64,000 nucleotides of DNA. Origin: an uncultured Alphaproteobacteria bacterium. Its GTDB lineage: Bacteria; Electryoneota; RPQS01. The position numbers and the translations under genes were made by a program. The stretch is from the NCBI GenBank assembly GCA_964530625.1, contig CAZHAK010000012.1, positions 8,654 through 72,653 on the forward strand, given 5' to 3'. The stretch's first letter is position 1. Each line of letters begins with the position of its first letter. This document shows, in pieces, positions 28,886 through 48,397 of the stretch. Below the pieces are notes generated by a model. The model did no database searches. It was not told the origin of the DNA and was given only the letters and a program-made list of their open reading frames with translations.

Positions 28886-31800
28886 TTACTCGCGCAGATC
28901 CACGTCAATACCCAATCCGCGAAGTTCGTTCACAAGAACGTGGAACGATTCCGGAATACCTGGCGCGGGCAGATTGTCGCCTTTGACGATAGCTTCGTAG
29001 GTCCTCGCGCGACCGTTGATATCGTCCGACTTAATCGTAAGAATCTCTTGCAGGATGTGCGCGGCTCCGTAAGCTTCGAGCGCCCAGACTTCCATTTCTC
29101 CGAATCTCTGACCACCGAATTGCGCCTTGCCACCGAGCGGCTGCTGCGTAATCAAACTGTACGGTCCAATTGAACGCGCGTGGATTTTGTCGTCCACCAA
29201 ATGCGAAAGCTTCAGAACGTACATAAAGCCGACAGCGGTCTCCTCTTGGAAACGCACACCCGTGCGACCGTCAAAGAGATATGTCTTGCCATGCCGCGGC
29301 AGGCCAGCTCGATCCAGCCACTCTTCCACATCGGCGGTTTTCGCTCCGTCAAACACAGGCGTCGCGAAGTGTACACCGAGTCGGTGGGCAGCCCAGCCGA
29401 GAGTAGTTTCAAAAAGCTGGCCGATGTTCATACGAGAGGGAACCGACAGCGGATTCAGAATAATGTCAACAGGAGTTCCGTCCGACAGAAATGGCATGTC
29501 CTCAACGGGCACAACTTTACCGACGACGCCCTTGTTACCGTGGCGGCCTGCCATCTTATCGCCGACAGAGAGCTTACGTTTCTGTGCGACGTACACGCGC
29601 ACAAGTTGGACGATTCCGGGAGGAAGCTCGTCGCCGACTTCAATGCGGTAGCGCTCGTTTTTCAATTCAGTTTCATGCTCGAACAGGCGCTCGCGGAATT
29701 TGTCGAAGGACTGCGCGATCATCTCGTTTATGCCTTCGTTGCTGGTCCACTCAAAGCCGGATTCAATCCGATCCACATCCAAAGTTTGCAGCAGCGATTC
29801 CGTGAAGTTCGCGCCTTCGGAAACCATGATCTCAGTTTGATCACGGTCACGTATTTCGCGCGCTTTATGTCCACGCAACATCGAGTACAGCTCTTCCGCC
29901 AATTGCTTGCGCAGTCGTTGGCGTTCGCGCTCGTACTTTGCTTCCAAATCCTCGACGTGCTTCTTGTCTTCCTTGCGCGTTTTGGCGTCTTTCTTCTTGC
30001 GGCTGAACAGCTTGGTGTTAATCACAATACCGTACATACCAGTGTGCGCCTTGAGACTCGCGTCCTTAACATCGCCTGCCTTGTCTCCGAAGATGGCTTT
30101 AAGAAGCTTGTCTTCGGGAGTCAAATCGGTTTCGCCCTTCGGAGTCACCTTACCGACCAGTATATCTCCGGGCCTGACAATCGCGCCGATCCGAATCACG
30201 CCGATTTCGTCAATATTCCTGACCGCGTCTTCCGACACGTTGGGAATTTCACGAGTGAGTTCTTCTTCGCCGCGCTTGGTTTCGCGAACCTGAAGCTCAA
30301 GCTCTTCAATATTGATGGATGTGTAGACGTCGTCATACACAATGCGCTCGGAAACGATAATCGAGTCTTCAAAGTTGTAACCATGCCAGGGCATGAAGGC
30401 CACGAGAATATTACGACCCAAAGCAAGCTCACCGCGATCTGTGCCGCAACCATCAGCCAAAGTGGTTCCTGCTTTCACTTCATCGCCTTCCACCACGGAA
30501 GGCTTTTGATTGATGCAGGTATCCTGATTGGTGCGAACAAACTTTTTCAGTTTGTAGGTAATGGATTCAGGTTGCGAGACAGAGTTGCCTTCTTCATCAA
30601 CGGCCGGATTCGGACGGAAGATAATTTTGGTGCTGTCCACATACTCGACCACACCGTCACTTGGGGCCATAATCATGGTCCGTGAATCCACGGCAGCTTT
30701 GCGCTCCATGCCCGTGCCCACATAGGGAGCCTCAGGACGCAACAGCGGCACAGCCTGGCGCTGCATGTTCGATCCCATCAACGCACGGTTGGCGTCATCA
30801 TGCTCAAGGAATGGAATCAGCGCGGCAGCCACGGACACAATTTGCGAAGGCGCAACGTCCATGTATTCGATATTGTCCGGATGCGCCACGGGGAAATCGG
30901 CACGGTTTCGGCATTTCACGCGGTCCGTTTGGAATTCACCCTTTTGATTGATAGGCGTATTTGCCTGAGCAATCGTGACGCGATCCTCTTCGTCGGCGGA
31001 CAGGAACTTAATGGACTTGGTCACCTTGCTGCTCTTTACCGAGCGATATGGCGTTTCGACAAATCCCATTTCGTTGATCCGCGCGAACGTACACAAGGAC
31101 GAAATCAATCCGATATTCGGACCTTCAGGAGTTTCAATCGGGCAAAGACGGCCATAGTGAGTGTAATGGACGTCACGCACTTCAAAGCCTGCGCGCTCGC
31201 GCGTTAAACCGCCGGGGCCAAGCGCGGACAAGCGGCGTTTGTGCGTCAACTCGGTCAGCGGATTGACCATATCAAGAAACTGCGAAAGCTGATTGGTTCC
31301 GAAGAAACTGTTAATAACCGACGTAATCGTGCGGACGTTAATCAAGTCCTGCGGCGTCATGGCGTTCGCGTCGCGCAAATTCATGCGCTCCTTAATCGTG
31401 CGGGCCATACGTGACAGCGCCACGCTGAACTGGTTGGCGAGCTGTTCACCGACTGTACGCACGCGGCGATTGCCAAGGTGGTCGATATCGTCCGGCGCGG
31501 CACGACCCACGCGCAGTTTCAGCACGTGCTTCATAATCGCGACGATGTCTTCCGGCGTCAGCACGGCGCACTCGGGTGGCACGTTCAAGTCAAGCTTGTT
31601 GTTCAAACGATAGCGGCCTACGGCGCCGAGGTCGTAGCGTTTTTCATCAAAGAGCAAGCGCTCGAGGAACTTACGCGCGGTCTCGATATCCGGTGCGTCG
31701 CCGCTGCGTAATTCGCGGTAGATGACTTCCAACGCGTGATCCGTGGAACTCGACTTGTCCTTGTTCAAGGTGTTGATCAGGATGTCGTAAGACGTATCCT

Positions 31801-32665
31801 TCTTTTTCGGCTTGGACAAATCAACACTTTGCACACCGGCTTCGACCATCTTCGTCAGCAACTCGTCGGTCAACTCCGCTCCGGCGGTGGCGACCACTTC
31901 ACCGGTGGAAGAATTGACGGCGTCGGACACGAGCCTGCGTCCGACTTCCTTATTCAAATCCTTACGATTAGTCGGCACGGTTTCAACAAACCCGAACAGG
32001 TCAAGGATGTCGCGATTGGTTTGACTGCCCATCGCGCGCAAAAGCGTCGTGGCCGGGAATTTCTTGCGACGGTCAACATAGACGTTCAGTACGTCGTTGA
32101 TGTCGGTGGAAATTTCAATCCACGATCCGCGAAACGGAATGATGCGCGCGGAATAAATCTTCTTACCGTTGGGGTGCGTGTCTTCACCGAAGAACACACC
32201 GGGGCTGCGGTGAAGCTGCGACACAATCACCCGTTCGGCGCCGTTGATGATAAACGTGCCCGACGACGTCATTAGCGGCAGGTTGCCGAGATAGACGTCA
32301 CTTTCGATCGTTTGATCAAAAGAGCCGGCTTCGCTGGTTTCGTCGCGAGACGACAAACGCAGCTTCGCCTTCAGCGCAGCTTGAAACGTCACGCCGCGCT
32401 CGCGGCATTCGTCTTCTTCATATTTCGGACGTTCAACCGAATAATCAACATACTCGAGAATATGCGTCTCGCGATTGTCGATGATCGGAAAAATATTCCG
32501 GAACACCGCCTCAAGACCGTAAGCCCTGCGACGGTTAGGTGGCACATCAACCTGCAAAAAATCGCGGAAGCTCTTAAGCTGGACTTCGAGCAAGTCCGGC
32601 ATTTCATGAACTTCAGGAATCTTCGAGAAGTTGATGCGTTGAATGGTTCTCTGTGGATCGCGCAC
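28886..32665 (-). CDS. rpoB: DNA-directed RNA polymerase subunit beta
   Basis: 1259 aa with conserved beta-subunit blocks such as 'GDKMAGRHGNKGVV'. Confidence 0.98.
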   Translation of the reverse strand: MRDPQRTIQRINFSKIPEVHEMPDLLEVQLKSFRDFLQVDVPPNRRRAYGLEAVFRNIFPIIDNRETHILEYVDYSVERPKYEEDECRERGVTFQAALKAKLRLSSRDETSEAGSFDQTIESDVYLGNLPLMTSSGTFIINGAERVIVSQLHRSPGVFFGEDTHPNGKKIYSARIIPFRGSWIEISTDINDVLNVYVDRRKKFPATTLLRAMGSQTNRDILDLFGFVETVPTNRKDLNKEVGRRLVSDAVNSSTGEVVATAGAELTDELLTKMVEAGVQSVDLSKPKKKDTSYDILINTLNKDKSSSTDHALEVIYRELRSGDAPDIETARKFLERLLFDEKRYDLGAVGRYRLNNKLDLNVPPECAVLTPEDIVAIMKHVLKLRVGRAAPDDIDHLGNRRVRTVGEQLANQFSVALSRMARTIKERMNLRDANAMTPQDLINVRTITSVINSFFGTNQLSQFLDMVNPLTELTHKRRLSALGPGGLTRERAGFEVRDVHYTHYGRLCPIETPEGPNIGLISSLCTFARINEMGFVETPYRSVKSSKVTKSIKFLSADEEDRVTIAQANTPINQKGEFQTDRVKCRNRADFPVAHPDNIEYMDVAPSQIVSVAAALIPFLEHDDANRALMGSNMQRQAVPLLRPEAPYVGTGMERKAAVDSRTMIMAPSDGVVEYVDSTKIIFRPNPAVDEEGNSVSQPESITYKLKKFVRTNQDTCINQKPSVVEGDEVKAGTTLADGCGTDRGELALGRNILVAFMPWHGYNFEDSIIVSERIVYDDVYTSINIEELELQVRETKRGEEELTREIPNVSEDAVRNIDEIGVIRIGAIVRPGDILVGKVTPKGETDLTPEDKLLKAIFGDKAGDVKDASLKAHTGMYGIVINTKLFSRKKKDAKTRKEDKKHVEDLEAKYERERQRLRKQLAEELYSMLRGHKAREIRDRDQTEIMVSEGANFTESLLQTLDVDRIESGFEWTSNEGINEMIAQSFDKFRERLFEHETELKNERYRIEVGDELPPGIVQLVRVYVAQKRKLSVGDKMAGRHGNKGVVGKVVPVEDMPFLSDGTPVDIILNPLSVPSRMNIGQLFETTLGWAAHRLGVHFATPVFDGAKTADVEEWLDRAGLPRHGKTYLFDGRTGVRFQEETAVGFMYVLKLSHLVDDKIHARSIGPYSLITQQPLGGKAQFGGQRFGEMEVWALEAYGAAHILQEILTIKSDDINGRARTYEAIVKGDNLPAPGIPESFHVLVNELRGLGIDVDLRE

Positions 32666-32866
32666 AAAAGGCTCCCTTAGAATACCAGCAATGAATCTCG
32701 ATTTAGCCTTGTTCAGTGATTTCGCAAATCGGGATGATTCAACACATTGAACCCGAAACTACGCGTAAAAACAAGGAAGTTTTGAGCTATACAAACAAGC
32801 TCTTAATAAACGCAAATTGCCAAGTCTGACTTCAGCGCATTGGCTGCGCGGAAGGGACTCGGCAAC

Positions 32867-32885
32867 CCGAGACGAAAACTCGGGA
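32867..32885 (-). promoter_or_regulatory. stem-loop in the 249-nt rplL-rpoB spacer (possible attenuator)
   Basis: Hairpin cccgag-N7-ctcggg, 30 nt after the rplL stop, with no clear U-tract. The only support beyond the hairpin is analogy to the E. coli rplL-rpoB attenuator. Confidence 0.25.
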
Positions 32886-32914
32886 AAGCGCGGCGAAAGC
32901 AAGCGGCAAACGCC

Positions 32915-33283
32915 TTACTTAATTTCGACTTTGGCTCCCTGCTCTTCGAGCTTGGCCTTAACTTTGTCGGCTTCGTCTTTTGGCAGCGCTTCCTTGACGG
33001 TCTTCGGTGCGCCATCCACGAGGTCTTTCGCTTCCTTCAGGCCCAAGCCGGTCAATTCACGCACGACCTTAATGACCTGAATCTTCTGCGCGCCGGCTTC
33101 CATAAGCACGACGTCAAACTCGGTCTTCTCTTCTGCGGCGGCGGCCGGAGCGGCTCCACCCATCGGCATACCCATCATCATAGGGGCCGCGGCGGTAACG
33201 CCAAACTTGTCTTCCAATGCCTTCTTCAGCTCGACGAGCTCAAGGACGGTCATTTTTTCGATTGCTTCGATAATTTGTTGCAC
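32915..33283 (-). CDS. rplL: 50S ribosomal protein L7/L12
   Basis: Contains '[17 protein letters not shown]' and the A-rich hinge. Confidence 0.98.
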
Positions 33284-33333
33284 GGTTGGTCTCCGTTATG
33301 GTTTGTTAAATTCTCTTGTGAAAAGGAAATGCG

Positions 33334-33879
33334 TCAGTCTTGCTTCTTGGTCGCGATTTGGTCCACAACGGACACAAAATCACGCAAAACAGCATTGACC
33401 ACATTGTAGAAGCCCTGCACGGGGCTGAAGACGGCTGCAACCAAGCCAGAGAGCGCTTCTTCGCGTGTCGGGAGGTCTTTGATTGCGGTAAGTTCGGAAG
33501 CGGGCAGGACTTTCCCGTCAAAGATAACACTTTTGACAACGAGCCTGTCGCTCGTTTTCATAAACTTATCTAAGATACGCGCGGGCATGGCGGCATCTTC
33601 ATAGCCAATGGCGATGGCAGTAGGGCCTTCAAGGTACTTCACCGCGTCATCAAATCCCTTGTCCTTCAGCACCATACGTGAGAAGGTGTTTTTGACGATA
33701 ATGAAGTCCACTTGGTTCTTAAAACACTCGCGGCGCAACTCAGTCATTTTCTCGACCGAGAGTCCGAGGTTATCCGCCAGATACACTCCTGAAGCGCGAT
33801 CCATTTTCTCACGGAAGTCCGCGACGATGGCTGCCTTTTCGGGGCGTATGGTACGGTTTTGAAGTTCAGCTAAAGACAT
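33334..33879 (-). CDS. rplJ: 50S ribosomal protein L10
   Basis: Sequence and synteny. Confidence 0.96.
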   Translation of the reverse strand: MSLAELQNRTIRPEKAAIVADFREKMDRASGVYLADNLGLSVEKMTELRRECFKNQVDFIIVKNTFSRMVLKDKGFDDAVKYLEGPTAIAIGYEDAAMPARILDKFMKTSDRLVVKSVIFDGKVLPASELTAIKDLPTREEALSGLVAAVFSPVQGFYNVVNAVLRDFVSVVDQIATKKQD

Positions 33880-33897
33880 ATCTCGTTCCTGTAGGGC

Positions 33898-34599
33898 TTA
33901 GTGGAGTTTCGCGCTCTCAACTTCGGAACGCTGAATCCGGATGCCCGGTCCCATCGTCGAAGTTAGAAACACGGACTTGACATATTGCCCTTTGGCCGTG
34001 GCGGGCTTGTTGCGCATGACGTTCCGGAAAAATTCTTCAATATTTTCCAGTAACTGCGTAGAAGTAAAATTCAAACGGCCGACTCCCAGATGCAAGATGC
34101 CGTACTTGTCCACACGGAACTCGACTTTACCGCCCTTGACGTCGCGTACGGCGTTGCCAATGTTAGGCGTAACAGTTCCAGCTTTGGGGTTCGGCATCAA
34201 TCCGCGCGGACCCAAAATCTTACCCAGCTTACCAAGGTCGGCCATGACCTCAGGCGTCGCCACAAGCACGTCAAAATCCGTCCAGCCGCCTCTGATGCGT
34301 TCGAGGATATCCTCGAAACCTGCATGGTCGGCACCGGCTTCCTGTGCTTCGGTGATCTTGGTTTTAGAAACTGCGACCACACGCACCGTCTTACCGGTAC
34401 CGTGCGGAAGCGTTACTGTTCCGCGAACTATCTGATCGGCTTTTTTGGGATCCACTCCCAATCGCACCGCGACTTCAACGGTTTCGTTGAACTTTGCGGC
34501 TGCGGTTTTCTTGAGCGACTCAATCGCGTCCGACAGAGGCAGTTCGGTATTGCGGTTGACTTGCTCGCGATTGCGCTTTACACGCTTTGAATAGGGCAA
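33898..34599 (-). CDS. rplA: 50S ribosomal protein L1
   Basis: Sequence and synteny. Confidence 0.97.
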   Translation of the reverse strand: MPYSKRVKRNREQVNRNTELPLSDAIESLKKTAAAKFNETVEVAVRLGVDPKKADQIVRGTVTLPHGTGKTVRVVAVSKTKITEAQEAGADHAGFEDILERIRGGWTDFDVLVATPEVMADLGKLGKILGPRGLMPNPKAGTVTPNIGNAVRDVKGGKVEFRVDKYGILHLGVGRLNFTSTQLLENIEEFFRNVMRNKPATAKGQYVKSVFLTSTMGPGIRIQRSEVESAKLH

Positions 34600-34660
34600 T
34601 GCTGCTCCTTGGTGGTTCTTTCGTGCGGCGTTGGCACTCCCACCCGTTTATTAGAAAAGT

Positions 34661-35086
34661 TTACTGACCGACGTTCACGCCCATGGAGCGGCAGGTGCCT
34701 TCGACCATTCGCATGGCCATTTCCACGGTGTTGGCATTCAAATCTTTCATTTTGATTTCGGCAATCTCGCGAATCGCGGCTTGCGAAATCGTTCCAACCT
34801 TGTTGCGGTTGGGTTCGCCCGATCCCTTGTCCAGCTTGGTCGCTTTCTTAATCAAGATCGCGGCGGGAGGGGTCTTCGTGATAAAGCTGTAGCTCTTGTC
34901 CTTATAAACCGTAATGACAACGGGAATAATCATTCCCTTGTCTTTTTCGGTGCGGGCATTGAACTGCTTGCAGAAGTCCATGATGTTGACCTGCTTCTGA
35001 CCAAGCGCAGGTCCAATCGGCGGCGCGGGGGTTGCGGCTCCGGCAGGAATTTGCAGGCGAATGTATCCGGTAATTTGCTTTGCCAT
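34661..35086 (-). CDS. rplK: 50S ribosomal protein L11
   Basis: N-terminus '[30 protein letters not shown]'. Confidence 0.98.
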
Positions 35087-35145
35087 GATGTATCTCTGTT
35101 CTTATCTCGCCCCGGTTTTCCGGGGGGAATTAAGGGGGTAAAATT

Positions 35146-35721
35146 TTAGCTTGTGCCTAACTCGGTCGAAATTTGCAGGAAATCCAACTCAATCGGAGTG
35201 GAACGGCCAAAAATTGAGACCATGACCTTGGCTTTGCGCTTCGGCATATTGATCTCTCTTACCAATCCTGTGAAATCCTTAAACGGTCCGTCTATTACCT
35301 TGATCGTGTCGTTGACGCCAAACGGCAACTCGATCAACTCCATGTTATCGGCTTTGTCCTGCTGGCCTAAAATGCGGTCAACTTCGTGACGGCGCAGGGG
35401 AACCGGACGGTTCTTCGGGCCGACGAAATTAATCACTTGCGGCGTATTCAAAATCAAATGCTCAGTGTTCTTGTTCAAGATCATTTCCACAAGCATATAG
35501 CCGGGGAAGAACGTGCGCGTCTTGGCTTTCTTCTTGCCGTCGCGCATTTCAATCACGTCTTCCTTGGGAATCAGGACTTGCGTGATCTGATCGGCAACAC
35601 CCAGCCGTTTGGATTCTTCTTCCAAGAATCCTTTGATTTTCTCTTCCTGTCCGGTGAACACGTGAAGGACATACCAGCCCAGTTCACCATCACGGATCGG
35701 TGCGTCAGTTGGATGAAGCAT
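35146..35721 (-). CDS. nusG: transcription termination/antitermination factor NusG
   Basis: NGN domain 'WYVLHVFTGQEEK' and KOW domain 'VIDGPFKDFTGLV'. Confidence 0.96.
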   Translation of the reverse strand: MLHPTDAPIRDGELGWYVLHVFTGQEEKIKGFLEEESKRLGVADQITQVLIPKEDVIEMRDGKKKAKTRTFFPGYMLVEMILNKNTEHLILNTPQVINFVGPKNRPVPLRRHEVDRILGQQDKADNMELIELPFGVNDTIKVIDGPFKDFTGLVREINMPKRKAKVMVSIFGRSTPIELDFLQISTELGTS

Positions 35722-35735
35722 TTAGCTTGAACTAC

Positions 35736-36641
35736 TCACAATGAACGTTTAACTCCAATATATAGCTCAGAAGAACCCGGTCCTCCAAGCAGACCGCTGG
35801 TGTAACTGAGCGTCCCCCGGGTGGCTCCGCGCAAAAGTCCGAACGCCGTGCGCGAATCCGATAGGATACAATGATAGAAGGCATCAAATGCCACGGCGCC
35901 GAGGCTCCTTGGATCGAAACCTGCTCGAATCAAGAGATCAAGCATCACCGGCGGCTCAAAATGATAAAGATGTCTGGGTGAATCCCAGGCGACCCATTGG
36001 TCTCCGTACGCCTTCGCATCAATGGAGAGCGGATTGGGCACCGCGATAGCAATTTTCCCGCGCGGAGACAGCAGCTTTCTGGCAATCTCCAATGTCTCGC
36101 GCAACTTATGGACATGTTCCAATACATGCCACATCGTAATCAATTTATACGGTCCGGCATGAGCCGGGACAGCATCAATTCCGCCTGTCCAAACTCTCAA
36201 GCCAAGTTTGTCGCGCGCATGCTGCGCCGCTCTTTCACTTGGCTCGCAGCCGTCTGCTTCAAATCCTCTTCGCTTCAATTCCACTACAAACTCACCGGTC
36301 GCACAACCGACGTCAAGACATCGGTCAGCAGGCTTTAATCCAACCACAACTCTGGCGGCCTTGCGCCGGATAGACAGCGGACGAAATTTGCGATAGAGCT
36401 TTGCCGATACCGTCTGCGGTCCGTCACCTGCCGAAGCAAAAGGATCGTATCCCGGAGTGTCATAGAACGCGCCGATGGATGCTTCATCGGGCCGCGGATT
36501 CAGATAAATCAGTTTACACATCTGACACCGCACAAGAGCGTACGTGCGATTGTCGAGCACTCGAAACCTGTCTTCTACGGTACGCTCTGGTTTATGTTCC
36601 GGGCAGGAGCAAACCGGGCAGACAATCGTCTCAAAATTCAC
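35736..36641 (-). CDS. class I SAM-dependent methyltransferase with N-terminal Cys4 zinc-ribbon
   Basis: Has 'CPVCSC...CQMCKL' followed by the SAM motif I 'LDVGCATGEF'. It uses a GTG start 12 nt after the secE stop, and its own stop is 14 nt before the nusG start. Confidence 0.8.
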   Translation of the reverse strand: MNFETIVCPVCSCPEHKPERTVEDRFRVLDNRTYALVRCQMCKLIYLNPRPDEASIGAFYDTPGYDPFASAGDGPQTVSAKLYRKFRPLSIRRKAARVVVGLKPADRCLDVGCATGEFVVELKRRGFEADGCEPSERAAQHARDKLGLRVWTGGIDAVPAHAGPYKLITMWHVLEHVHKLRETLEIARKLLSPRGKIAIAVPNPLSIDAKAYGDQWVAWDSPRHLYHFEPPVMLDLLIRAGFDPRSLGAVAFDAFYHCILSDSRTAFGLLRGATRGTLSYTSGLLGGPGSSELYIGVKRSL

Positions 36642-36653
36642 GCCGAATGAAAA

Positions 36654-36836
36654 CTACAGCAGTTGCTGAAGTCCCAGACTAAGGATGCGATCTACCACGA
36701 AGACGGCAAGTCCCAGTATGAGAGTGAGTCCGAGCACGATCCACGTGCTTTCCGCGACTTCCGGTCGGGTCGGCCATGTGACTTTCGTCATTTCCGACTT
36801 GACATCGGTGACGTAGTTGATAGTTTTCTTAATCAT
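36654..36836 (-). CDS. secE: preprotein translocase subunit SecE
   Basis: 60 aa with 'EMTKVTWPTRPEV' plus a single TM helix, in the position tRNA-Trp/secE/nusG. Confidence 0.93.
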   Translation of the reverse strand: MIKKTINYVTDVKSEMTKVTWPTRPEVAESTWIVLGLTLILGLAVFVVDRILSLGLQQLL

Positions 36837-36868
36837 GATGTTTCAGTTGTGAGGCTGTCCTCAGTCTT

Positions 36869-36941
36869 GCACGGCAGGAGGGACTCGAACCCCCAACAAC
36901 CGGTTTTGGAGACCGGGACTCTACCAATTGAGCTACTGCCG
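36869..36941 (-). tRNA. tRNA-Trp (anticodon CCA)
   Basis: Folded by hand into a cloverleaf: acceptor ACGGCAG/CTGCCGT, anticodon loop CTCCAAA, T-loop TTCGAGT. Ends are accurate to about +/-2 nt. Confidence 0.9.
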
Positions 36942-36985
36942 TGTACCGCTGCCGCGACGAGGCTTCGGCACGGCGGCTTAAATGG

Positions 36986-37023
36986 GAACAGAAGGCCGGA
37001 GCCATAAAAGGTGGCTCCGGCCT
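36986..37023 (-). terminator. rho-independent terminator after tuf
   Basis: 12-bp stem aggccggagcca / tggctccggcct, followed by a T-rich run on the minus strand. Confidence 0.65.
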
Positions 37024-37040
37024 ATCCGGAAAGAGTGTAC

Positions 37041-38231
37041 TTACTCGATGATCTTAGTTACACGTCCCGCGCCGACGGTCTTGCCGCCTTCACGAATAGC
37101 GAAACGCAAACCTTCGTCCATCGCGATGTCGGTAATCAAGTCAACGGTGATTGCCGTGTTGTCGCCGGGCATAATCATCTCGGTGCCTTCACTCAACGTA
37201 ACCGAACCGGTAACGTCGGTCGTGCGGAAGAAGAACTGCGGGCGGTAATTATTGAAGAACGGCGTGTGTCGGCCACCTTCGTCTTTGGACAGGACGTAAA
37301 CCTGCGCTTCGAACTTCTTGTGCGGCTTGATCGAACCGGGCTTACAGAGCACCATTCCACGCTCGAGATCGTCTTTTTCCACACCGCGCAAAAGCAATCC
37401 TGCGTTGTCGCCAGCGAAGCCTTCATCGAGGAGCTTACGGAACATTTCTACACCCGTTACAACCGTCTTCTTGTGCTGTCCCAACCCGACGATTTCAACT
37501 TCCTCACCAACCTTAACCTTGCCGCGCTCAATACGGCCCGTACCGACGGTACCGCGACCGGTAATCGAGAACACGTCTTCGATCGGCATCAGGAAAGGCT
37601 TATCGAGCGCACGTACCGGTTCCGGAATGAACTCATCCACGGCGTCCATCAATTCCATGATGCACTTGGTCTTTTCGGGATCCTGCAAGTTTGACAGCGC
37701 TTCCAACGCGCTGCCGCGGATCACCGGAAGCGTGTCGCCGGGATATTCGTACGAGGACAGCAATTCACGAACTTCAAGCTCAACCAAGTCGAGCAATTCA
37801 GGATCGTCAACTTGGTCGCACTTGTTCAGGAACACGACCAGCGCGGGCACGTTCACCTGACGAGCGAGCAGAACGTGCTCACGCGTCTGGGGCATGGGGC
37901 CGTCCGCGGCGGACACGACGAGAATCGCGCCGTCCATTTGGGCAGCACCGGTGACCATGTTCTTAATATAGTCGGCGTGGCCCGGGCAGTCCACGTGCGC
38001 GTAGTGGCGCTTTTCAGTTTCGTACTCAGCGTGGTGGACGTTAATCGTGACGCCGCGCTCTTTTTCTTCGGGCGCGTTGTCGATATCGTCATAGTTACGG
38101 GCTTGTGCCAATCCCTTAGCGGCGAGCACTTGCGTGATAGCGGCGGTGAGAGTGGTTTTGCCATGGTCGACGTGACCAATAGTGCCGATGTTAACATGCG
38201 GCTTGTTGCGTTCAAATTTGGCTTTTGCCAT
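37041..38231 (-). CDS. tuf: elongation factor Tu
   Basis: Contains '[10 protein letters not shown]', 'DCPGHADY' and 'NKCD'; 396 aa. Confidence 0.99.
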
Positions 38232-38320
38232 TGCCGGACAACCTCCTTAGGGGTTCAGCAGTTCTATGTTTATTGTATTCAAAGATTCACAGGAATTACC
38301 CGAGAAGCCGGATAACACGT

Positions 38321-38396
<76 letters not shown>

Positions 38397-38439
38397 AAGA
38401 ACAGGAGTGCGCGTTTGGTGGGCGCAACCACGTCATCAG

Positions 38440-38512
38440 AGCGGGCGACGAGACTCGAACCCGCGACCCTCAGCTTGGAAGGCTGATGCTCTACCAACTG
38501 AGCTACGCCCGC
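38440..38512 (-). tRNA. tRNA-Gly (anticodon TCC)
   Basis: Manual fold: acceptor GCGGGCG/CGCCCGC, anticodon loop CTTCCAA, T-loop GGTTCGAGTC. Confidence 0.9.
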
Positions 38513-38624
38513 ATAAGAAACGAAATGAAGAAGCAGCCTAAAAAGGGTGCACCCCTCTTGGGTGACCACCTCTAAGGCCACTAAGAACAAAGACTAACGT
38601 GGTCTATTTCGAGAAGATACCCGG

Positions 38625-38707
38625 TGGTGGCAGATGGATTTGAACCACCGTAGGCGTTTGCCAGCAGATTTACAGTCTGCCCCCTTTAGCCACTCGGGCA
38701 TGCCACC
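38625..38707 (-). tRNA. tRNA-Tyr (anticodon GTA), long variable arm
   Basis: Manual fold: acceptor GGTGGCA/TGCCACC, anticodon loop CTGTAAA, long extra arm, T-loop GGTTCAAATCC. Confidence 0.9.
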
Positions 38708-38748
38708 AAGCAAGTCTTTGGGATTTTAGCTACAACCGAATGTAATAG

Positions 38749-38821
38749 AGCTGGCGACAGGACTTGAACCCGCAACCTGTTGATTACAAATCAACTGCTC
38801 TACCAGTTGAGCTACGCCAGC
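38749..38821 (-). tRNA. tRNA-Thr (anticodon TGT)
   Basis: Manual fold: acceptor GCTGGCG/CGCCAGC, anticodon loop TTTGTAA, T-loop GGTTCAAGTCC. Confidence 0.9.
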
Positions 38822-38851
38822 AGTTAGGTACCGCCGAAAACCGCAGACCCA

Positions 38852-38880
38852 AAGTTAAGAACTTGTGAAATTGCAGTCAA
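38852..38880 (-). promoter_or_regulatory. sigma70-like promoter candidate for the tRNA-tuf operon
   Basis: On the minus strand reads TTGACT-N17-TAACTT, about 30 nt upstream of tRNA-Thr(TGT). Confidence 0.4.
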
Positions 38881-38957
38881 GCGGCGAGCGAGTGGATTTG
38901 GGGCGAAATGGCGGTTTTTTCGGCGTTTTGACACACATAGTGCCAGATACGCCTCTC

Positions 38958-40361
38958 CTATTTCCTCCTCCAAATAGTCTTCCCCGCCCTATCCTCAATG
39001 ATGATGCCTCTCTCAGATAGGGCATCGCGGGCGCGGTCGGCTTCGGGCCAATTTTTGGATTGACGGGCGTGGTTGCGGGCTTCAATTAAGGCTTCAATCT
39101 CAGCAGCTTCGGGGTCATCAGGCTCCTGATCCAAATCAAGGAAGCCTAAAACAGAGTCAAAACGGCGCATCGCGCCAATGGCAAGCTCCTGCTCGGAATT
39201 GCCAATTTTAGCTTGCTGACAAAGGGTGTTCGCGTCACGCACAAAGTTGAAAACTGCAGCCAGCGCTTCGGGGTAATTTAGATCATCATCAAGGGCGTCC
39301 CTGAACTCGTGCTCGCGTTGCGCAACCATGTCTTTCAGTTCCGCCATTCCCCCTTTGCCTGTCGCGTGCTCCAGATTCAAACTGCACGATTCAAATCTCG
39401 CCAATGCTTGTTTGATACTCTCAAGTCCACTGGCCTGAAAATTGGTGCGCTGACGGTAGTGACCGGACAACAATCCGTAGCGGATTTCGCGCGGCTTCCA
39501 ACCCTTGTCAATCATATCCTGCACTGTGAAAAAATTCCCCAGTGACTTGGACATTTTTTGACCGTCCACAAGCAAATGCTCGGAATGCATCCAGTAGCGG
39601 GCTAACGGCTCGTGCGTCACGCCTTCTGTCTGCGCGATTTCATTCTGGTGATGCGGAAAGATCAGGTCAACTCCGCCCAAATGAATATCAAAATTTTTGC
39701 CAAGATATTTCAACGACATCGCCGAGCACTCAAGATGCCATCCGGGCCGGCCCTTGCCTAAACTCGTCTCCCAAGCGACCGGGCCATCCTGCTCTTCCCA
39801 ATTCTTCCACAGAGCAAAATCGCGCACATCTTCTTTCTCGTATTCGTCACTTGCGACACGCTCGCCCACGCGCATTTCTTCCATGTTCAAGCGAGCGAGT
39901 TGTCCGTAACTCGAAAACGAGTCAATTTTGAAGTAGACGGAGCCATCCGCGACATAAGCATGTTTGGCGGCAATCAAGTCTTCCACCATCTTGACCATTT
40001 CCGGGATATGATCCGTCGCGCGGGGATAAATATCCGCGTCGGTAATTCCGATAGCCTTACGGTCGGCATGAAACGACTCGATATATCGATCCGTATATTC
40101 ACGCAGGGAAACGTTCTCGCAATTCGCGCCTTTGATCGTCTTATCGTCAATGTCCGTAAGGTTCATCACCCACGTCACCTCGTATCCGGAATAGGCCAAA
40201 TAACGGCGCAATAAATCCGAAATCAAAAACGTGCGGAAATTCCCGATATGCGCTTTCGCATAAACCGTGGGCCCGCAGGTGTACATAGCCACTTTGCCGG
40301 GATCTCGCGGCACGAACGGTTCAACTTTTCGAGTGAGTGTGTTGTAAAGTTTCAGTGACAT
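38958..40361 (-). CDS. cysS: cysteine--tRNA ligase
   Basis: Class I motifs: HIGH-like 'AHIGNFRT' and 'KMSKSLGN'; 467 aa. Confidence 0.96.
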   Translation of the reverse strand: MSLKLYNTLTRKVEPFVPRDPGKVAMYTCGPTVYAKAHIGNFRTFLISDLLRRYLAYSGYEVTWVMNLTDIDDKTIKGANCENVSLREYTDRYIESFHADRKAIGITDADIYPRATDHIPEMVKMVEDLIAAKHAYVADGSVYFKIDSFSSYGQLARLNMEEMRVGERVASDEYEKEDVRDFALWKNWEEQDGPVAWETSLGKGRPGWHLECSAMSLKYLGKNFDIHLGGVDLIFPHHQNEIAQTEGVTHEPLARYWMHSEHLLVDGQKMSKSLGNFFTVQDMIDKGWKPREIRYGLLSGHYRQRTNFQASGLESIKQALARFESCSLNLEHATGKGGMAELKDMVAQREHEFRDALDDDLNYPEALAAVFNFVRDANTLCQQAKIGNSEQELAIGAMRRFDSVLGFLDLDQEPDDPEAAEIEALIEARNHARQSKNWPEADRARDALSERGIIIEDRAGKTIWRRK

Positions 40362-40387
40362 TTATCGTAAAGGAGTAGTCTAAACTG

Positions 40388-41038
40388 TTAAGCGCTCGTT
40401 CCGCCGAGTTTGGCGCGGCTGTAATGCACAAAGCGAACAGCATACTGAATTCCTGAAGCCAAAATAAACGCGCTGGCAATCCAAACAAGCGTCTTCGGAT
40501 TGAACTCCGAGGTCATTTTCGGCCAATTCAGGGTGTAGCTGATCAATGCGACCGCGATGACAAACATCGTTAGTTTGCCGACGTAATTGGATGTAACAAT
40601 TAAGCCGCGCTTGCGAAACACATAAAAAGAGCCCCAAATAATCACCACATCGCGCGAAAGTATCAGCACCAAAAACCAAAGCGGCAGCGGGTTCTCGCGA
40701 GACGGCAAAGCCAGAAAAACAGCCAGCGCACCCAACCAAATCTTATCCGCCAGCGGATCGAGCACTCGTCCCCAATCCGTTTCGACATGAAACCAACGGG
40801 CGATCAATCCGTCCACCATGTCGCTGACCAGCGCCGTAGCCATCAACACCAGAGCCCAGAAGTTTCCGTTCTCTTTGGGCCCAAGTTTCAGAAAGTAGAA
40901 GAGCGGAATCAGCAAGAAAACTCTGGCGATGCTCATAAGATTTGGCACCGTCAGGAATTTTCGAGGCCGTGGTTTCGGTTCGAACACGAAACTCGTCTGT
41001 TTAGGCAACAGTTTGTCGGTGCGGTTTATCTCTGCCAC
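40388..41038 (-). CDS. CDP-alcohol phosphatidyltransferase family protein
   Basis: Carries the motif 'DMVDGLIARWF...DPLADK'. The likely start is GTG 41038, with GGAG 5 nt upstream and 2 nt after the purF stop; the track ORF extends to 41086 and overlaps purF. Confidence 0.85.
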   Translation of the reverse strand: MAEINRTDKLLPKQTSFVFEPKPRPRKFLTVPNLMSIARVFLLIPLFYFLKLGPKENGNFWALVLMATALVSDMVDGLIARWFHVETDWGRVLDPLADKIWLGALAVFLALPSRENPLPLWFLVLILSRDVVIIWGSFYVFRKRGLIVTSNYVGKLTMFVIAVALISYTLNWPKMTSEFNPKTLVWIASAFILASGIQYAVRFVHYSRAKLGGTSA

Positions 41039-42666: not shown

Positions 42667-43725
42667 TTGGAGCTAATTTTTGTGAAGGTACTGATAACGG
42701 GCGGCGCGGGATTCCTCGGACTACACACCGCGCTGTGTTTTGCGGAGCATGGCTGGGACCTGATTTTAACGGACATAGCACCCTTTGAGACGTCGGAATA
42801 TCCGGCGGGAACGGTTTTTCTTGAGCACGATGTGCGGGACAAAGCCGGGCTGGACAAAATCTTGTCGGAATACAAAGTGGACGTGATTGTCCATGGCGCG
42901 GCAGCTCTGCCTCTCTGGAAGCCGAAGGACATTTTTGAGATAAACGTGGAAGGCACGCGCCGCGTACTGGAATCGGCCAAACAAGCAGGGATAGACCGCG
43001 TCGTGTTTGTCTCGTCAACGGCGGTCTACGGCATTCCCGATCATCACCCCTTGTACGAAACGGACAGAGTGCATGGCGTAGGTCCGTATGGCGAGAGCAA
43101 GATTCAAGCGGAAGACGTTTGTTTCAAGTTTCGCTCAGCCGACTTCTGTGTGCCGGTGATTCGTCCCAAGACGTTTATCGGCACCCATCGTCTGGGAGTC
43201 TTTCAGATTCTTTATGATTGGGTCGAAAGCGGCAAGCGCATTCCGATGATCGGCAAGGGCAACAACCGCTATCAGCTTTTGGAAGTAGACGATCTTGCTG
43301 AGGCGATTTATTTAGGCGCAACGGTTGAGGCGGCTCGCGCGAATGATACATTCAACATCGGCGCGGAAGAATTCAAGACCGTCAGAGAAGACATGGGCGC
43401 AATGTGCCACTATGCGGGTAACGGTGCGCGTCCGTGGGGCACTCCCGCAGGGCCGGTCAAGCTCGCGCTGATGATTTTTGAAGTGATGGGACTTTCGCCT
43501 CTTTATAAATGGGTCTATGGCACGGCGGACCAGGACAGCTTCGTCTCAATTGACAAAGCCAAGCGCGAGCTGGGCTGGAGGCCGAAATACTCGAACGCGC
43601 AGGCCTTGATTCGCAGCTATCAATGGTATTTGGATAACAAGCACACGATTCCCGAAGGCAGCGGCATCACGCACCGCATCGCCTGGAATCAAGGCATCCT
43701 GAAATTCTTCAAACGGTTTATGTGA
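42667..43725 (+). CDS. NAD-dependent epimerase/dehydratase (extended SDR)
   Basis: Contains 'ITGGAGFLG' and the 'YGESK' catalytic YxxxK. The start may instead be GTG 42682 (GGAG upstream). Confidence 0.88.
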   Translation: MELIFVKVLITGGAGFLGLHTALCFAEHGWDLILTDIAPFETSEYPAGTVFLEHDVRDKAGLDKILSEYKVDVIVHGAAALPLWKPKDIFEINVEGTRRVLESAKQAGIDRVVFVSSTAVYGIPDHHPLYETDRVHGVGPYGESKIQAEDVCFKFRSADFCVPVIRPKTFIGTHRLGVFQILYDWVESGKRIPMIGKGNNRYQLLEVDDLAEAIYLGATVEAARANDTFNIGAEEFKTVREDMGAMCHYAGNGARPWGTPAGPVKLALMIFEVMGLSPLYKWVYGTADQDSFVSIDKAKRELGWRPKYSNAQALIRSYQWYLDNKHTIPEGSGITHRIAWNQGILKFFKRFM

Positions 43726-43746
43726 TCTGCTGACGGGAGGTTGGGA

Positions 43747-46404
43747 ATGAAACTGTCCGCCACAATTGCACTTTCGATAGTTTGCCTGTTCTGTTTACAG
43801 TCAACGATGCTCGCCACTCCCTATTGGACGGAGGCCCAGCTTGACTCAGCGCAAGCCGCGTCCGGTACTGCGTCATTGATTCGCCACGGTGAGACCGGCA
43901 ACCGCTCGCACAGCAGATCGCTTGACGATATTGCTTACTTCGTGAAGTATCGGCAGCTTTGTGATTTTCTGGCTTCGATGCAGGTCACGACACCCGGCGC
44001 GAACTTAGGCGGGATGCGCGAGGGCGAGGTCGGCAGCGACTTCAATATCATTCAGACCGACAACACACAAGAAGCCATTCGCGTTTGGTCGCAATATTCT
44101 ATATGGACGGGCGACACCGCTCGCTATGCGCAGAACATTCGCAACGCCTGGACATATTGCACGGTCTGGCCCGCGTGGCGCGAAGAAGGCGGCGGCTACT
44201 ACGCGATGCACAACTGCGGCTGGGGATTTGAAGCGGCCTACAAATACCGCGAAGCCTACGGCGACACGAGCAAAAACTGGTACGCCGACAGTTGCGCGTG
44301 GTGGGTGAACGGTAATCCGCTAAGTCTGACTTCGATTCTGAATATCGCCGCGCAAGGCTTGGGCATCGGCGGTATGTATCCTCACGCGGTCTATCGTGGC
44401 CGCACGGATTGGCAGGACTTCACATTGGGCCGCGCGCGCATTATTCGCAATTGGTTTCAAGCAAATCCGTCGCGCTTAAATACCGAAACAAGTTGGGCAC
44501 TCTGCGCAGGCACTGCGATTTGGGGAGTCTGCAATTCACTGTGGATAGCCTATCCCGACAGCGGCGCGACGTGGATAAACCAATACGGCACGAATCTCGA
44601 AACATGGGAGTCGCCCTCATCATGGTACAACGCATTTAATACGTGGTACTCGAACGCGACGTTCAGGTTCTGGGAAATCAGTGGCGACTCACTCTATTGG
44701 CATCGCGGGGTTTTCTACGCCGACTCGCTGGTGGGTTTTGACGTGGACAACGACGGCGGCATTCCGCCGGGCACCTGCTGTATCAGCAACGGCAACGACC
44801 ATACTTGGGTCAGTGCCTACATGGGTTGGATGGGACTCGAACGGATAATTTCGTCTGCGCCGATTTCGTTTGTGGATGCGGTCGGATTTTCCAGTCCCTC
44901 AGAGGACGCTGCGTATCTTGCGGGCGATCCGCTTCCGGTTACTGCGCTGGTCGCGAATCAGGGTACGGAAGCATTGCAGGGCCGTGTCTGGGTGTGGGGA
45001 TTGAATTACTCGGACAGCGCAGATTTCACTGCTGGAGCGGGTGACGTCGTGGAGGTACCGATGAGCAATCTTTGGACGCTTGCAGACAACTCCACACTTC
45101 CTGAATCGCCTATGCTATTTTCAAGGGTGCGGGTTATCTTAGAAGGCGACACTTTGCAGGCATTAGATTCTGCGGGCTTTGATATTCGGCGCGGTGGCAT
45201 CGTGCAGGGAACTATCTCGGGCGAGTTTGACATCGCAACGTCCCCCGCCTGCTTGATTGAGTTCTATTCGGATTCCTACCCGGACTCGCTCTGGCACTCG
45301 GTAAATGTCGGCGCGGGCGAGATGTACTCCAATGGCGCTCGTCGCCTGTTGTCGGGCGGCAATCGAATGGTCGTCTACGGGCCAGCTCGCTACTTGATTG
45401 AAGAGATCGCGTTTTACCCATTAACTCCGGAAGAGAATCCGGATGATCTCGATGTGTACCTGACATCATCGGACGTTCTTCTGGTGGATGACGATCTTGG
45501 ACAAAGCTACGAGAATTATATTCTGTCAGCGCTTGATGCCAATGACAGAAATGTGCGCGTCTGGGATCGCCAGTCAACGGTGCTCGGCGATCTGTCTAAT
45601 GTGCCGTGGTTGATTTGGATGACGGGCAACGACGCGGTGACGACTCTTGATGCGCAAGACCATAATACGTTAACGGGCTTTATGCTGGCAGGCGGCGGAG
45701 TGTTATTGACGGGGCAGAACATCACGGATGATCCTCAGAACGAAGACTTCTTACGCGACATAATGCGATGCGAGGAAGATCGCTCGGATACGGACGTGCT
45801 GCGCGCCTATGGCTTAGGCGACGACCCTGACGTGGATGGACAATTCTTGTTGCTGTTAGGCTCACAAGGGGCGCAGAATCAAACAAGCCCCTCCTCTATC
45901 ACTTTGTTAAATGGAGCCACAGCGATCTTTGTCAATGATACGATCACGGAGGAAGTGTGCGGAGTATCAGGACTGCATGGATCTGGCAAGTTTATTTTCC
46001 TGAGCTTCGGACTTGAAGGAGCGTCAGGACAAGCTGGCAGTACGTCGCGCTCCGTGTTTTTATCTGCTGCAGAAGACTGGTTGACAGCACCGCTGCAAGC
46101 AACCATTGATCCACCCGTCGTGTGGAACTTCGAGTTGCTGCCGAGTTTTCCCAATCCTTTCAACGGCCAAGTGCAGATTCGCTGGCTCGCTCCAGATAAT
46201 TCTTCCCGAACTACTCTCCAAGTTTACAATCTTTTGGGCAGGCATGTGACAACCTTGTTTGACGGGTTCGGGAAAATTGGACAAAACTTGGTCACATGGA
46301 ACGGCGCAACATCAAGTGGTGTTCCGGTATCCAGCGGAACGTACTTGGTTCGCTTGACGACGCCGGACGCGACGCTGTCACACTCCATCCGCTTCATCCG
46401 CTGA
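43747..46404 (+). CDS. large secreted protein of unknown function with T9SS C-terminal sorting domain
   Basis: GGGAGG SD before ATG 43747 and a signal peptide 'MKLSATIALSIVCLFCLQS'. The N-terminal region is W/Y-rich. The C-terminus 'FPNPFNGQVQIRW...GTYLVRLTT...IRFIR' is a Por tail. Confidence 0.85.
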   Translation: MKLSATIALSIVCLFCLQSTMLATPYWTEAQLDSAQAASGTASLIRHGETGNRSHSRSLDDIAYFVKYRQLCDFLASMQVTTPGANLGGMREGEVGSDFNIIQTDNTQEAIRVWSQYSIWTGDTARYAQNIRNAWTYCTVWPAWREEGGGYYAMHNCGWGFEAAYKYREAYGDTSKNWYADSCAWWVNGNPLSLTSILNIAAQGLGIGGMYPHAVYRGRTDWQDFTLGRARIIRNWFQANPSRLNTETSWALCAGTAIWGVCNSLWIAYPDSGATWINQYGTNLETWESPSSWYNAFNTWYSNATFRFWEISGDSLYWHRGVFYADSLVGFDVDNDGGIPPGTCCISNGNDHTWVSAYMGWMGLERIISSAPISFVDAVGFSSPSEDAAYLAGDPLPVTALVANQGTEALQGRVWVWGLNYSDSADFTAGAGDVVEVPMSNLWTLADNSTLPESPMLFSRVRVILEGDTLQALDSAGFDIRRGGIVQGTISGEFDIATSPACLIEFYSDSYPDSLWHSVNVGAGEMYSNGARRLLSGGNRMVVYGPARYLIEEIAFYPLTPEENPDDLDVYLTSSDVLLVDDDLGQSYENYILSALDANDRNVRVWDRQSTVLGDLSNVPWLIWMTGNDAVTTLDAQDHNTLTGFMLAGGGVLLTGQNITDDPQNEDFLRDIMRCEEDRSDTDVLRAYGLGDDPDVDGQFLLLLGSQGAQNQTSPSSITLLNGATAIFVNDTITEEVCGVSGLHGSGKFIFLSFGLEGASGQAGSTSRSVFLSAAEDWLTAPLQATIDPPVVWNFELLPSFPNPFNGQVQIRWLAPDNSSRTTLQVYNLLGRHVTTLFDGFGKIGQNLVTWNGATSSGVPVSSGTYLVRLTTPDATLSHSIRFIR

Positions 46405-47773: not shown

Positions 47774-48397
47774 ATGAACGTTGCGCGACTCTTTTTTGCA
47801 CTGCTGCTCACATTCAATCTATCCGCACATGCCGAGGAGATGCCCGAACTTGCGACCCTTTTGGCGCTCTTCAGCGCGAGCGCGACAGAGAACGGCACCA
47901 TCCGCTTGAATTGGACCCTCGACCAGCAATCTCCTGCCGTGATAAAATTTCGCGTTTATCGCGGCTATGAAGAACTGGGAAACTTCTCCGTCTTATCCGA
48001 GATTCCGTTTCACGCGGAACAGGGCGCGGCGGACTATCTGTTGAACGACACGTCGGCGATTCCGGGTGTGACCTACTACTACAAGCTCGCGGCACAAGGT
48101 CAACTGAACGAATCCATCTTCCCTGTCGTGATTTCGGCAGGAGTACCATTAGGCGACAAGAACGCGGGTCAGGACGACGAAGCTCCCGCGATCATTCTTC
48201 CCGGTGAGACGGTAAGACTGTACGTGCGCAAATCCGGGCACGTCAAGCTCGAACGCACAGCCCCCGAACAAAAGACACTGATTGATGGCGAGTTAGCATC
48301 GGGAGTCTATGAAGTCGAAGCGGGCCCGGCTGCTCAATCGCTGAAAGTTTGGGCGGGGCAAGCCTACGAGTTTTCGTTAAGCTGGCCGATACAATAA
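47774..48397 (+). CDS. secreted hypothetical protein with FN3-like domain
   Basis: Signal peptide 'MNVARLFFALLLTFNLSAHA' and an FN3-like stretch 'IRLNWT...FRVYRG...GVTYYYKL'. Confidence 0.75.
   Translation: MNVARLFFALLLTFNLSAHAEEMPELATLLALFSASATENGTIRLNWTLDQQSPAVIKFRVYRGYEELGNFSVLSEIPFHAEQGAADYLLNDTSAIPGVTYYYKLAAQGQLNESIFPVVISAGVPLGDKNAGQDDEAPAIILPGETVRLYVRKSGHVKLERTAPEQKTLIDGELASGVYEVEAGPAAQSLKVWAGQAYEFSLSWPIQ

Follow-up and report, generated by a model that had tools for sequence, protein, structure and literature searches.

The window analysed here, a stretch of 64,000 nucleotides (nt) of an uncultured bacterium (GenBank assembly GCA_964530625.1, contig CAZHAK010000012.1; GTDB lineage Electryoneota, RPQS01), carries between secE and nusG a gene for a predicted class I S-adenosylmethionine (SAM)-dependent methyltransferase with an N-terminal ribbon of four cysteines (Cys4). 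The gene (35736..36641, minus strand; GTG start, TGA stop; Pfam Methyltransf_23, 3e-24) encodes a protein of 301 amino acids (aa), designated below as MT, and all coordinates are positions of the window. Directly upstream of it lies secE (36654..36836, minus strand, 60 aa; Pfam SecE 9e-17 and TIGR00964 above its cut-off), and directly downstream nusG (35146..35721, minus strand, 191 aa; TIGR00922 at 1e-55, with 187.9 bits against a cut-off of 135.7). The order on the minus strand is the tRNAs for Thr, Tyr, Gly and Thr, then tuf, tRNA-Trp, secE, MT, nusG and rplK/A/J/L. The tuf gene (37041..38231, minus strand; EF-Tu of 396 aa, 84-96% identical to the GTP_EFTU genes of the loci L006-L010) belongs to the upstream transcription unit, tRNA-Trp (CCA anticodon; 36869..36942, minus strand; ARAGORN, and Rfam tRNA at 66 bits) stands between tuf and secE, and rplK-rplA-rplJ-rplL (32915..35086, minus strand) were placed 3' of nusG by tblastn to loci labelled by Pfam as Ribosomal_L11, L1, L10 and L12. 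The junctions, read from the raw sequence, consist of the secE stop codon TAG, 12 nt and the GTG of MT, and of the MT stop codon TGA, 14 nt and the ATG of nusG, which confirms the distances and the common strand given by the original prediction and adds the minus strand and the GTG start. Both gaps are too short for a promoter or a terminator, in agreement with the same prediction, and a consensus scan of 34500-38800 revealed no excess of promoter-like sites (1 observed against 2.4 expected) or of terminator-like sites (8 observed against 5.0 +/- 2.6 expected). A terminator-like hairpin within the 3' end of MT (35790-35765) was set aside because of its poor U-tail and the lack of enrichment of such sites. 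Only tRNAs were detected by the Rfam scan of 30000-41000, and the open reading frame (ORF) list holds no frame of comparable support on the opposite strand of the MT locus.

The insertion is not a peculiarity of this genome. Thus, the order secE-MT-nusG was found in 12 of the 12 loci in which MT is at least 50% identical to the window protein (the window, L001-L004, L006-L010 and L096; MT identity 50-83%), and these loci are meant below by the clade or lineage, the public label of which includes 'Calditrichaeota bacterium'. In four GTDB species representatives MT is 82-83% identical and is placed between secE and nusG with the tuf and rplK flanks kept, and the more distant homologues P0011 (69%), P0022 (57%, two contigs), P0034 (56%), P0057 (55%) and P0059 (50%), the last of which stands at the base of the clade, all lie in the order tuf-(tRNA)-secE-MT-nusG-rplK-rplA-rplJ-rplL. 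The gaps in the clade vary from 12 to 45 nt between secE and MT and from -1 to 51 nt between MT and nusG. The insertion predates a deep split, because across the secE-linked loci the identity of EF-Tu, which ranges over 83-96%, falls to 83% and that of NusG to 76%. In a neighbour-joining tree the clade is monophyletic and is grouped with sequences linked to family 2 glycosyltransferase (GT2) and DUF2723 genes. Two circumstances had been regarded by the original prediction as unfavourable to itself, homologues in unrelated contexts and an insertion unique to this genome; homologues in glycosylation contexts were indeed encountered elsewhere, and the uniqueness was not.

The full length of MT is conserved across the clade, including residues 1-7 and all four cysteines. 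Against the 82% identical orthologues (L003, L004) the MT dN amounts to 0.11-0.13 with saturated dS, and the dN/dS of about 0.04, to be read with the same saturation, is similar to that of tuf and nusG. The GC content of MT is 0.536 against 0.531 for the window. A non-working ORF, be it newly inserted by horizontal transfer, a remnant in decay or an error of annotation, might be suspected from the divergent public start calls (261-339 aa) and from the GC content at third codon positions (GC3), which is below that of the neighbours; however, such an origin is scarcely credible and is effectively refuted by the conservation data, namely the full-length conservation, the dN/dS value, the GC content at the window mean and the presence in all 12 related loci, along with the gaps of 12-14 nt and the absence of repeats or mobile-element genes near MT. 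MT is thus a genuine gene, native to this genome, on which strong purifying selection acts. The public records name the protein only as 'class I SAM-dependent methyltransferase', and their gene calls for MT and its close relatives disagree on the start, giving 261, 266, 274, 301 or 339 aa. The calls of 261, 266 and 274 aa (internal starts; clusters P0001 and P0009) remove the first CxxC of the ribbon, with the 274-aa call starting at V28, and the conserved form of 301 aa is present in only some of the records.

The assignment of MT to the class I (Rossmann-fold) SAM-dependent methyltransferases follows from its sequence motifs and from Pfam, in which the cut-offs are exceeded by Methyltransf_23 (PF13489; 85.9 bits, cut-off 27) and also by PF08242, PF13649, PF08241 and PF13847. 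In an alignment of 68 family sequences, the N-terminal Cys4 ribbon CPVC...CQMC (residues 8-42; 36516..36620, minus strand), predicted to bind zinc, has its four cysteines C8, C11, C39 and C42 invariant, and the SAM-binding motif I LDVGCATGEF (residues 109-118; 36288..36317, minus strand), which like the ribbon had been recognized at first reading, has an invariant G112 and nearly invariant L109, D110, C113, T115 and G116. E133 at the end of strand 2 (36243-36245, minus strand) is also nearly invariant. C-terminal of the ribbon there follows an LNPRP segment (36489-36503, minus strand) with P51 invariant and N48, P49 and R50 nearly so. A candidate active-site and lid region (35970..36125, minus strand) was outlined from conserved residues and an approximate register with the sugar methyltransferase TcaB9; it is limited on the N-terminal side by VLEH (residues 173-176; 36114-36125, minus strand) and on the C-terminal side by PRH (residues 222-224; 35970-35978, minus strand), with P222 and R223 invariant and H176 and H224 nearly invariant. 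The ribbon, LNPRP and PRH(L)xxF segments are conserved throughout the family. The AlphaFold2 model is confident (predicted local distance difference test 95, predicted template-modelling score 0.93) and displays a seven-stranded alpha/beta fold, with a basic amphipathic helix at residues 78-98.

The family is very large and without a characterised member: a profile search of clusters at 50% identity retrieved at least 16,336 representatives at E <= 1e-30, nearly all of about 300 aa and matching end to end. Tandem MT-MT fusions of 580-680 aa (P0121, P0126, P0147, P0177) were the only fusions found among family members.

In the Foldseek search of the PDB, matches 1-18 were KijD1, MtmC and TcaB9, which are nucleotide-sugar C3-methyltransferases (E about 1e-13, template-modelling score 0.6); most of the other top matches were methyltransferases of small molecules, lipids and sugars, and a few were generic tRNA methyltransferases of lower Z. 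The best solved match is TcaB9, and the zinc-ribbon rRNA methyltransferase RlmA is not in the top 60. TcaB9, KijD1 and MtmC, which are TylC3-type nucleoside diphosphate (NDP)-hexose C3-methyltransferases, are about 20% identical to the window protein. TcaB9 possesses an N-terminal Cys4 zinc-binding domain, to be compared with the four invariant cysteines of the MT ribbon, and its structural alignment with MT, at 236 residues, is longer than those of the other methyltransferases in the list (155-212 residues) and apparently reaches beyond the methyltransferase core. With the sequence profile, too, TcaB9 and its relatives are retrieved, across residues 25-252, and the profile segment 4-96 aligned with TcaB9 168-256 brings the conserved H176 and H224 approximately into the register of His181 and of the stretch bearing His225; these residues may thus be equivalent one to one. 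From the TcaB9 catalytic set Tyr76, His181, Tyr222, Glu224 and His225, MT offers Y60, Y65, H176 and H224 in approximate register, whereas the residue beside the conserved His is Arg (R223) in the MT family and Glu224 in TcaB9. In a PDB sequence search the N- and C-terminal fragments gave no match, and a sub-profile placed TcaB9 15th.

The TcaB9-type targets are of about 405-416 aa, whereas the window protein is of 301 aa and lacks the C-terminal domain, which in the TcaB9-type enzymes holds the nucleotide sugar; Methyltransf_13 and Methyltransf_14 of Pfam gave no match on it at E <= 0.01. MT may therefore be described as a TcaB9-like ribbon and methyltransferase core without the C-terminal domain. 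Its gene does not belong to a deoxysugar or antibiotic cluster. The best sequence matches among solved structures are BCE_1332 (PDB 3cc8, 5.5e-24) and TM1293 (1vlm, 1.3e-16), with the lid included; the '...H(L/I)..F' motif in the lid of BCE_1332 corresponds to PRHLYHF of MT. These matches are limited to the core and lid (query 97-257 and 85-252, respectively) and do not cover the ribbon, and both proteins are structural-genomics methyltransferases that are uninformative on the substrate.

The nearest relatives outside the secE clade are found in glycosyltransferase operons. Thus, four of four homologues at 36-39% identity, from metagenome-assembled genomes (MAGs) labelled KSB1, Calditrichaeota and Deferribacteres, are encoded in the order DUF2723-GT2-MT-DUF4837-purE (L011, 1197-7015; L012; L013; L097, 10-4328), and in L011 and L097, both loci in which both junctions of the DUF2723-GT2-MT-DUF4837 operon were read, the stop and start codons overlap. 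The DUF2723 protein of the KSB1-type operon is TMEM260-like, of the glycosyltransferase C (GT-C) kind, with 11 predicted membrane spans, and the whole operon looks like an uncharacterised envelope glycosylation module. A GT2 gene directly precedes MT also in a Chloroflexota MAG and in four metagenome contigs, sometimes with a second methyltransferase gene after it. A GT2 and methyltransferase pair is known from mycofactocin, where MftF and MftM provide for the O-methylation of the growing glycan (PMC9679996, PMC7491314). The best NCBIfam match of the KSB1-type GT2 is MftF (109 bits against a cut-off of 280), and MT matches MftM faintly (22.6 bits against 200). In its published description MftM has a Methyltransf_11 domain and is closest, among characterised homologues, to RebM, and neither zinc nor an N-terminal domain is mentioned; in view of this and of the low score, MftM was rejected as a relative of MT, and the MftF/MftM pair was retained as a functional analogy only.

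The secE-linked gene is probably the relocated orthologue of the family, moved in the ancestor of the lineage. On the Mb-scale contigs with a secE-linked copy (3,366,276, 2,907,566, 1,048,725 and 988,615 bp) no second family member was found among the best 120 hits, which suggests one family copy per genome. A comparison of positions gave 41 conserved both inside and outside the clade and 10 that are clade-specific, none of which replaces a residue strongly conserved elsewhere; therefore, nothing points to an altered function.

As to expression, co-transcription of MT with secE and nusG would be the simplest reading, because the junctions are as short as 12-45 nt and -1 to 51 nt. This part of the original prediction stands, whereas the suggested stoichiometric co-regulation does not. 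Of the 11 secE-linked loci read, 8 start with GTG, 3 with TTG and none with ATG, and an evident Shine-Dalgarno sequence (GGAGG-like) occurs in one of the 11, L096. The codon adaptation index (CAI), calculated against a reference set of window genes for ribosomal proteins, EF-Tu and EF-G, is 0.596 for MT, the lowest in the operon, against 0.67 for secE, 0.735 for nusG, 0.81 for tuf and 0.67-0.82 for the neighbours overall, and the GC3 of MT is 0.52 against 0.60-0.68. Judging by codon usage, MT would ride a strongly transcribed operon yet be weakly translated, because of the non-ATG start, the lack of an evident Shine-Dalgarno sequence and the poor codon adaptation. Such a pattern is the opposite of stoichiometric co-production and fits transcriptional hitch-hiking with throttled translation.

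With a confidence somewhat short of even, MT is read here as a relocated sugar or small-molecule methyltransferase riding a housekeeping operon. The enzyme would use SAM to methylate a sugar or another small molecule, for example, a glycan or glycoconjugate precursor, which may be bound on one side by the Tyr-rich segment next to the ribbon (Y60, Y65) and on the other by the lid with W216, D220, R223 and H224, with H176 or H224 as a putative general base. The operon position would provide for constitutive, growth-coupled transcription and would be no pointer to a substrate among the components of translation. A sugar or small acceptor is favoured because of the structure and the nearest sequence relatives, and the tandem MT fusions and the coupling to GT2 fit glycan methylation.

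Several observations weigh against this reading. In the secE lineage no glycosyltransferase or sugar-nucleotide gene linked to MT was found, and no DUF2723-GT2-DUF4837 module of this lineage, with or without a methyltransferase, was seen among the 120 matches listed in searches with the KSB1 GT2 and DUF2723 proteins, the listed matches being KSB1, Calditrichota and Marinimicrobia relatives at 46% identity or more. A tblastn of the KSB1 neighbour proteins against the window returned only MT and a weak epimerase match; an epimerase/dehydratase-family gene lies at 42667-43725, 6 kb off and on the other strand, and nothing indicates that it is linked to MT. As the nucleotide-sugar-binding C-terminal domain of TcaB9 is absent, the acceptor could well be something other than a sugar. 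The basic character of the family (median pI 8.5-9) would suit RNA binding as well. Translation genes are linked to MT in two independent ways, by secE-nusG-rplK here and by ybeY-mnmG elsewhere, the latter being the largest group of homologues: in the metagenome set of 80 loci at 28-37% identity, the order ybeY-mnmG-MT, with mnmG directly before the homologue, was found in about 40 of the 80 Bacteroidota-like loci, as well as in a Cytophaga and a Dyadobacter genome, and single loci adjoin queA/truB or bipA. This coupling to mnmG and ybeY leans towards the RNA-related idea of the original prediction.

That prediction tentatively placed the substrate in the translation or transcription machinery. 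In such a reading the candidates would be rRNA, tRNA (with the U34 xm5U pathway as one example), EF-Tu, NusG or a ribosomal protein, L11 among them, and the zinc ribbon would be a module for RNA or protein recognition. Zinc ribbons do serve RNA methyltransferases, such as RlmA and the partners of Trm112. RlmA(I) and RlmA(II), the 23S rRNA m1G methyltransferases with a zinc-ribbon N-domain and a class I methyltransferase, share with MT the domain logic of an N-terminal Cys4 module before a Rossmann-type methyltransferase and provide a precedent. This assignment may also draw on the conservation of the secE/nusG-rplK position across the whole lineage, on the translation-gene links and the basic pI of around 9, and on the presence of Trm9-Trm112, a Trm112 complex, CmoM and CmoA among the structural matches, with generic scores only. 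However, no similarity of the RlmA type beyond the generic methyltransferase fold was found in sequence or structure, and searches of the window protein against Pfam and NCBIfam gave no match to PrmA (PF06325 or the NCBIfam model), MnmC(m), MnmM or any rRNA/tRNA methyltransferase model. The nearest sequence relatives in glycosyltransferase operons, the heterogeneous family contexts (ftsX, HU-like, GT2), and the low codon adaptation and non-ATG start, which argue against stoichiometric production, also count against it. The top structural matches, being mostly sugar, lipid and small-molecule methyltransferases, lend the proposed substrate no structural support, and with the outgroups in glycosyltransferase operons it is considered unlikely, though by no means negligible.

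The coupling to mnmG is tight, with the first MT Cys codon no more than 45 nt past the mnmG stop in 15 of the 21 measurable loci and frequent overlap of stop and start codons. Examples include L005, L014, L021-L023, L025, L030, L033, L058, L079 and L095, in addition to about 30 more. In the neighbour-joining tree the Bacteroidota-like sequences fall into a large group of their own, the sub-clades of which track their contexts. In one context MT is followed immediately by ftsX (9-11 loci, several of them human-gut contigs), and in another sub-clade, of about 5-7 loci, an HU-CCDC81-like gene stands upstream and a glutaminyl cyclase gene downstream on the opposite strand; the ftsX-linked and HU-CCDC81-linked MT genes are those of L018, L019, L027, L037, L038, L040, L046-L048, L061 and L083. 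That the whole family, with its 16,000 or more clusters at 50% identity, represents an unrecognised translation-apparatus methyltransferase is improbable; its roles might include a further step on MnmEG-modified wobble uridines or rRNA or ribosomal-protein methylation, with the ribbon acting like a fused recognition module of the Trm112 or RlmA type. If true, it would explain both the mnmG/ybeY coupling and the capture by the secE-nusG-rplK operon. The proposal that the mnmG-linked homologue supplies a missing nm5U methyltransferase activity has lost weight, as Bacteroidetes are reported to carry mnmC(m) (PMC9976899). A preprint on the Gram-positive MnmL/MnmM is silent on the MT family, and no published explanation for the mnmG-MT pairing was found in the literature.

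A housekeeping methyltransferase acting on lipids or on other small molecules (quinones, phospholipid head groups and cofactors are examples), with no relation to glycans or to translation, is likewise rather improbable. All the gene neighbourhoods would then be accidents of compact genomes, in keeping with a widespread family of mostly single-domain proteins of about 300 aa with many different neighbours; the basic amphipathic helix and a weak sub-threshold similarity to UbiG, UbiE, BioC and the phosphoethanolamine or phosphatidylethanolamine N-methyltransferases are in accordance with it. However, all NCBIfam equivalog scores are far below the cut-offs (UbiG 28.8 against 102.95, UbiE 19.2 against 216), and the overlap of stop and start codons with GT2 or mnmG, kept over deep divergence, makes an accident unlikely.

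The surroundings of the operon in the window can be outlined as follows. A one-strand block (21286-42507, minus strand) comprises purF, a CDP-alcohol phosphatidyltransferase gene, cysS, the four tRNAs, tuf, tRNA-Trp, secE, MT, nusG and rplKAJL, and its part with purF, the CDP-alcohol phosphatidyltransferase gene and cysS is also syntenic in L007, L009 and L010. After rplKAJL come two large ORFs (1259 and 1443 aa), identified as rpoB and rpoC from their size and their synteny with L006 and L007. An 887-aa ORF (43741-46404, plus strand) has a C-terminal FlgD_ig match and a borderline match to a type IX secretion sorting domain (26.9 bits against a cut-off of 27), a combination that would agree, if weakly, with an organism of the FCB group, and the ORFs of 1033 aa (51956-55057, minus strand) and 207 aa (47774-48397, plus strand) have no Pfam match at E <= 1e-5.

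The pair secE-nusG is among the most stable gene pairs in bacteria. In Salmonella, moving or disturbing the junctions that neighbour secE-nusG costs fitness (PMC6735719). In the literature no description was found of a methyltransferase or any other gene between secE and nusG, nor of TcaB9 homologues without the C-domain. MT is a variant of a familiar type of enzyme whose place in the operon, though unusual, is stable; this is not a major surprise, and the finding alone opens no long-standing question. It also provides a definition of a very large family of uncharacterised zinc-ribbon methyltransferases, TcaB9-like without the C-terminal domain, with two strong and conflicting neighbourhood signals, glycosyltransferases and mnmG, and it reveals a lineage that has tolerated a foreign reading frame of 0.9 kb within secE-nusG over a long divergence, with EF-Tu identity down to 83%, an insertion that would have been accommodated by keeping the junctions very short, the start codon weak and the codon adaptation poor.

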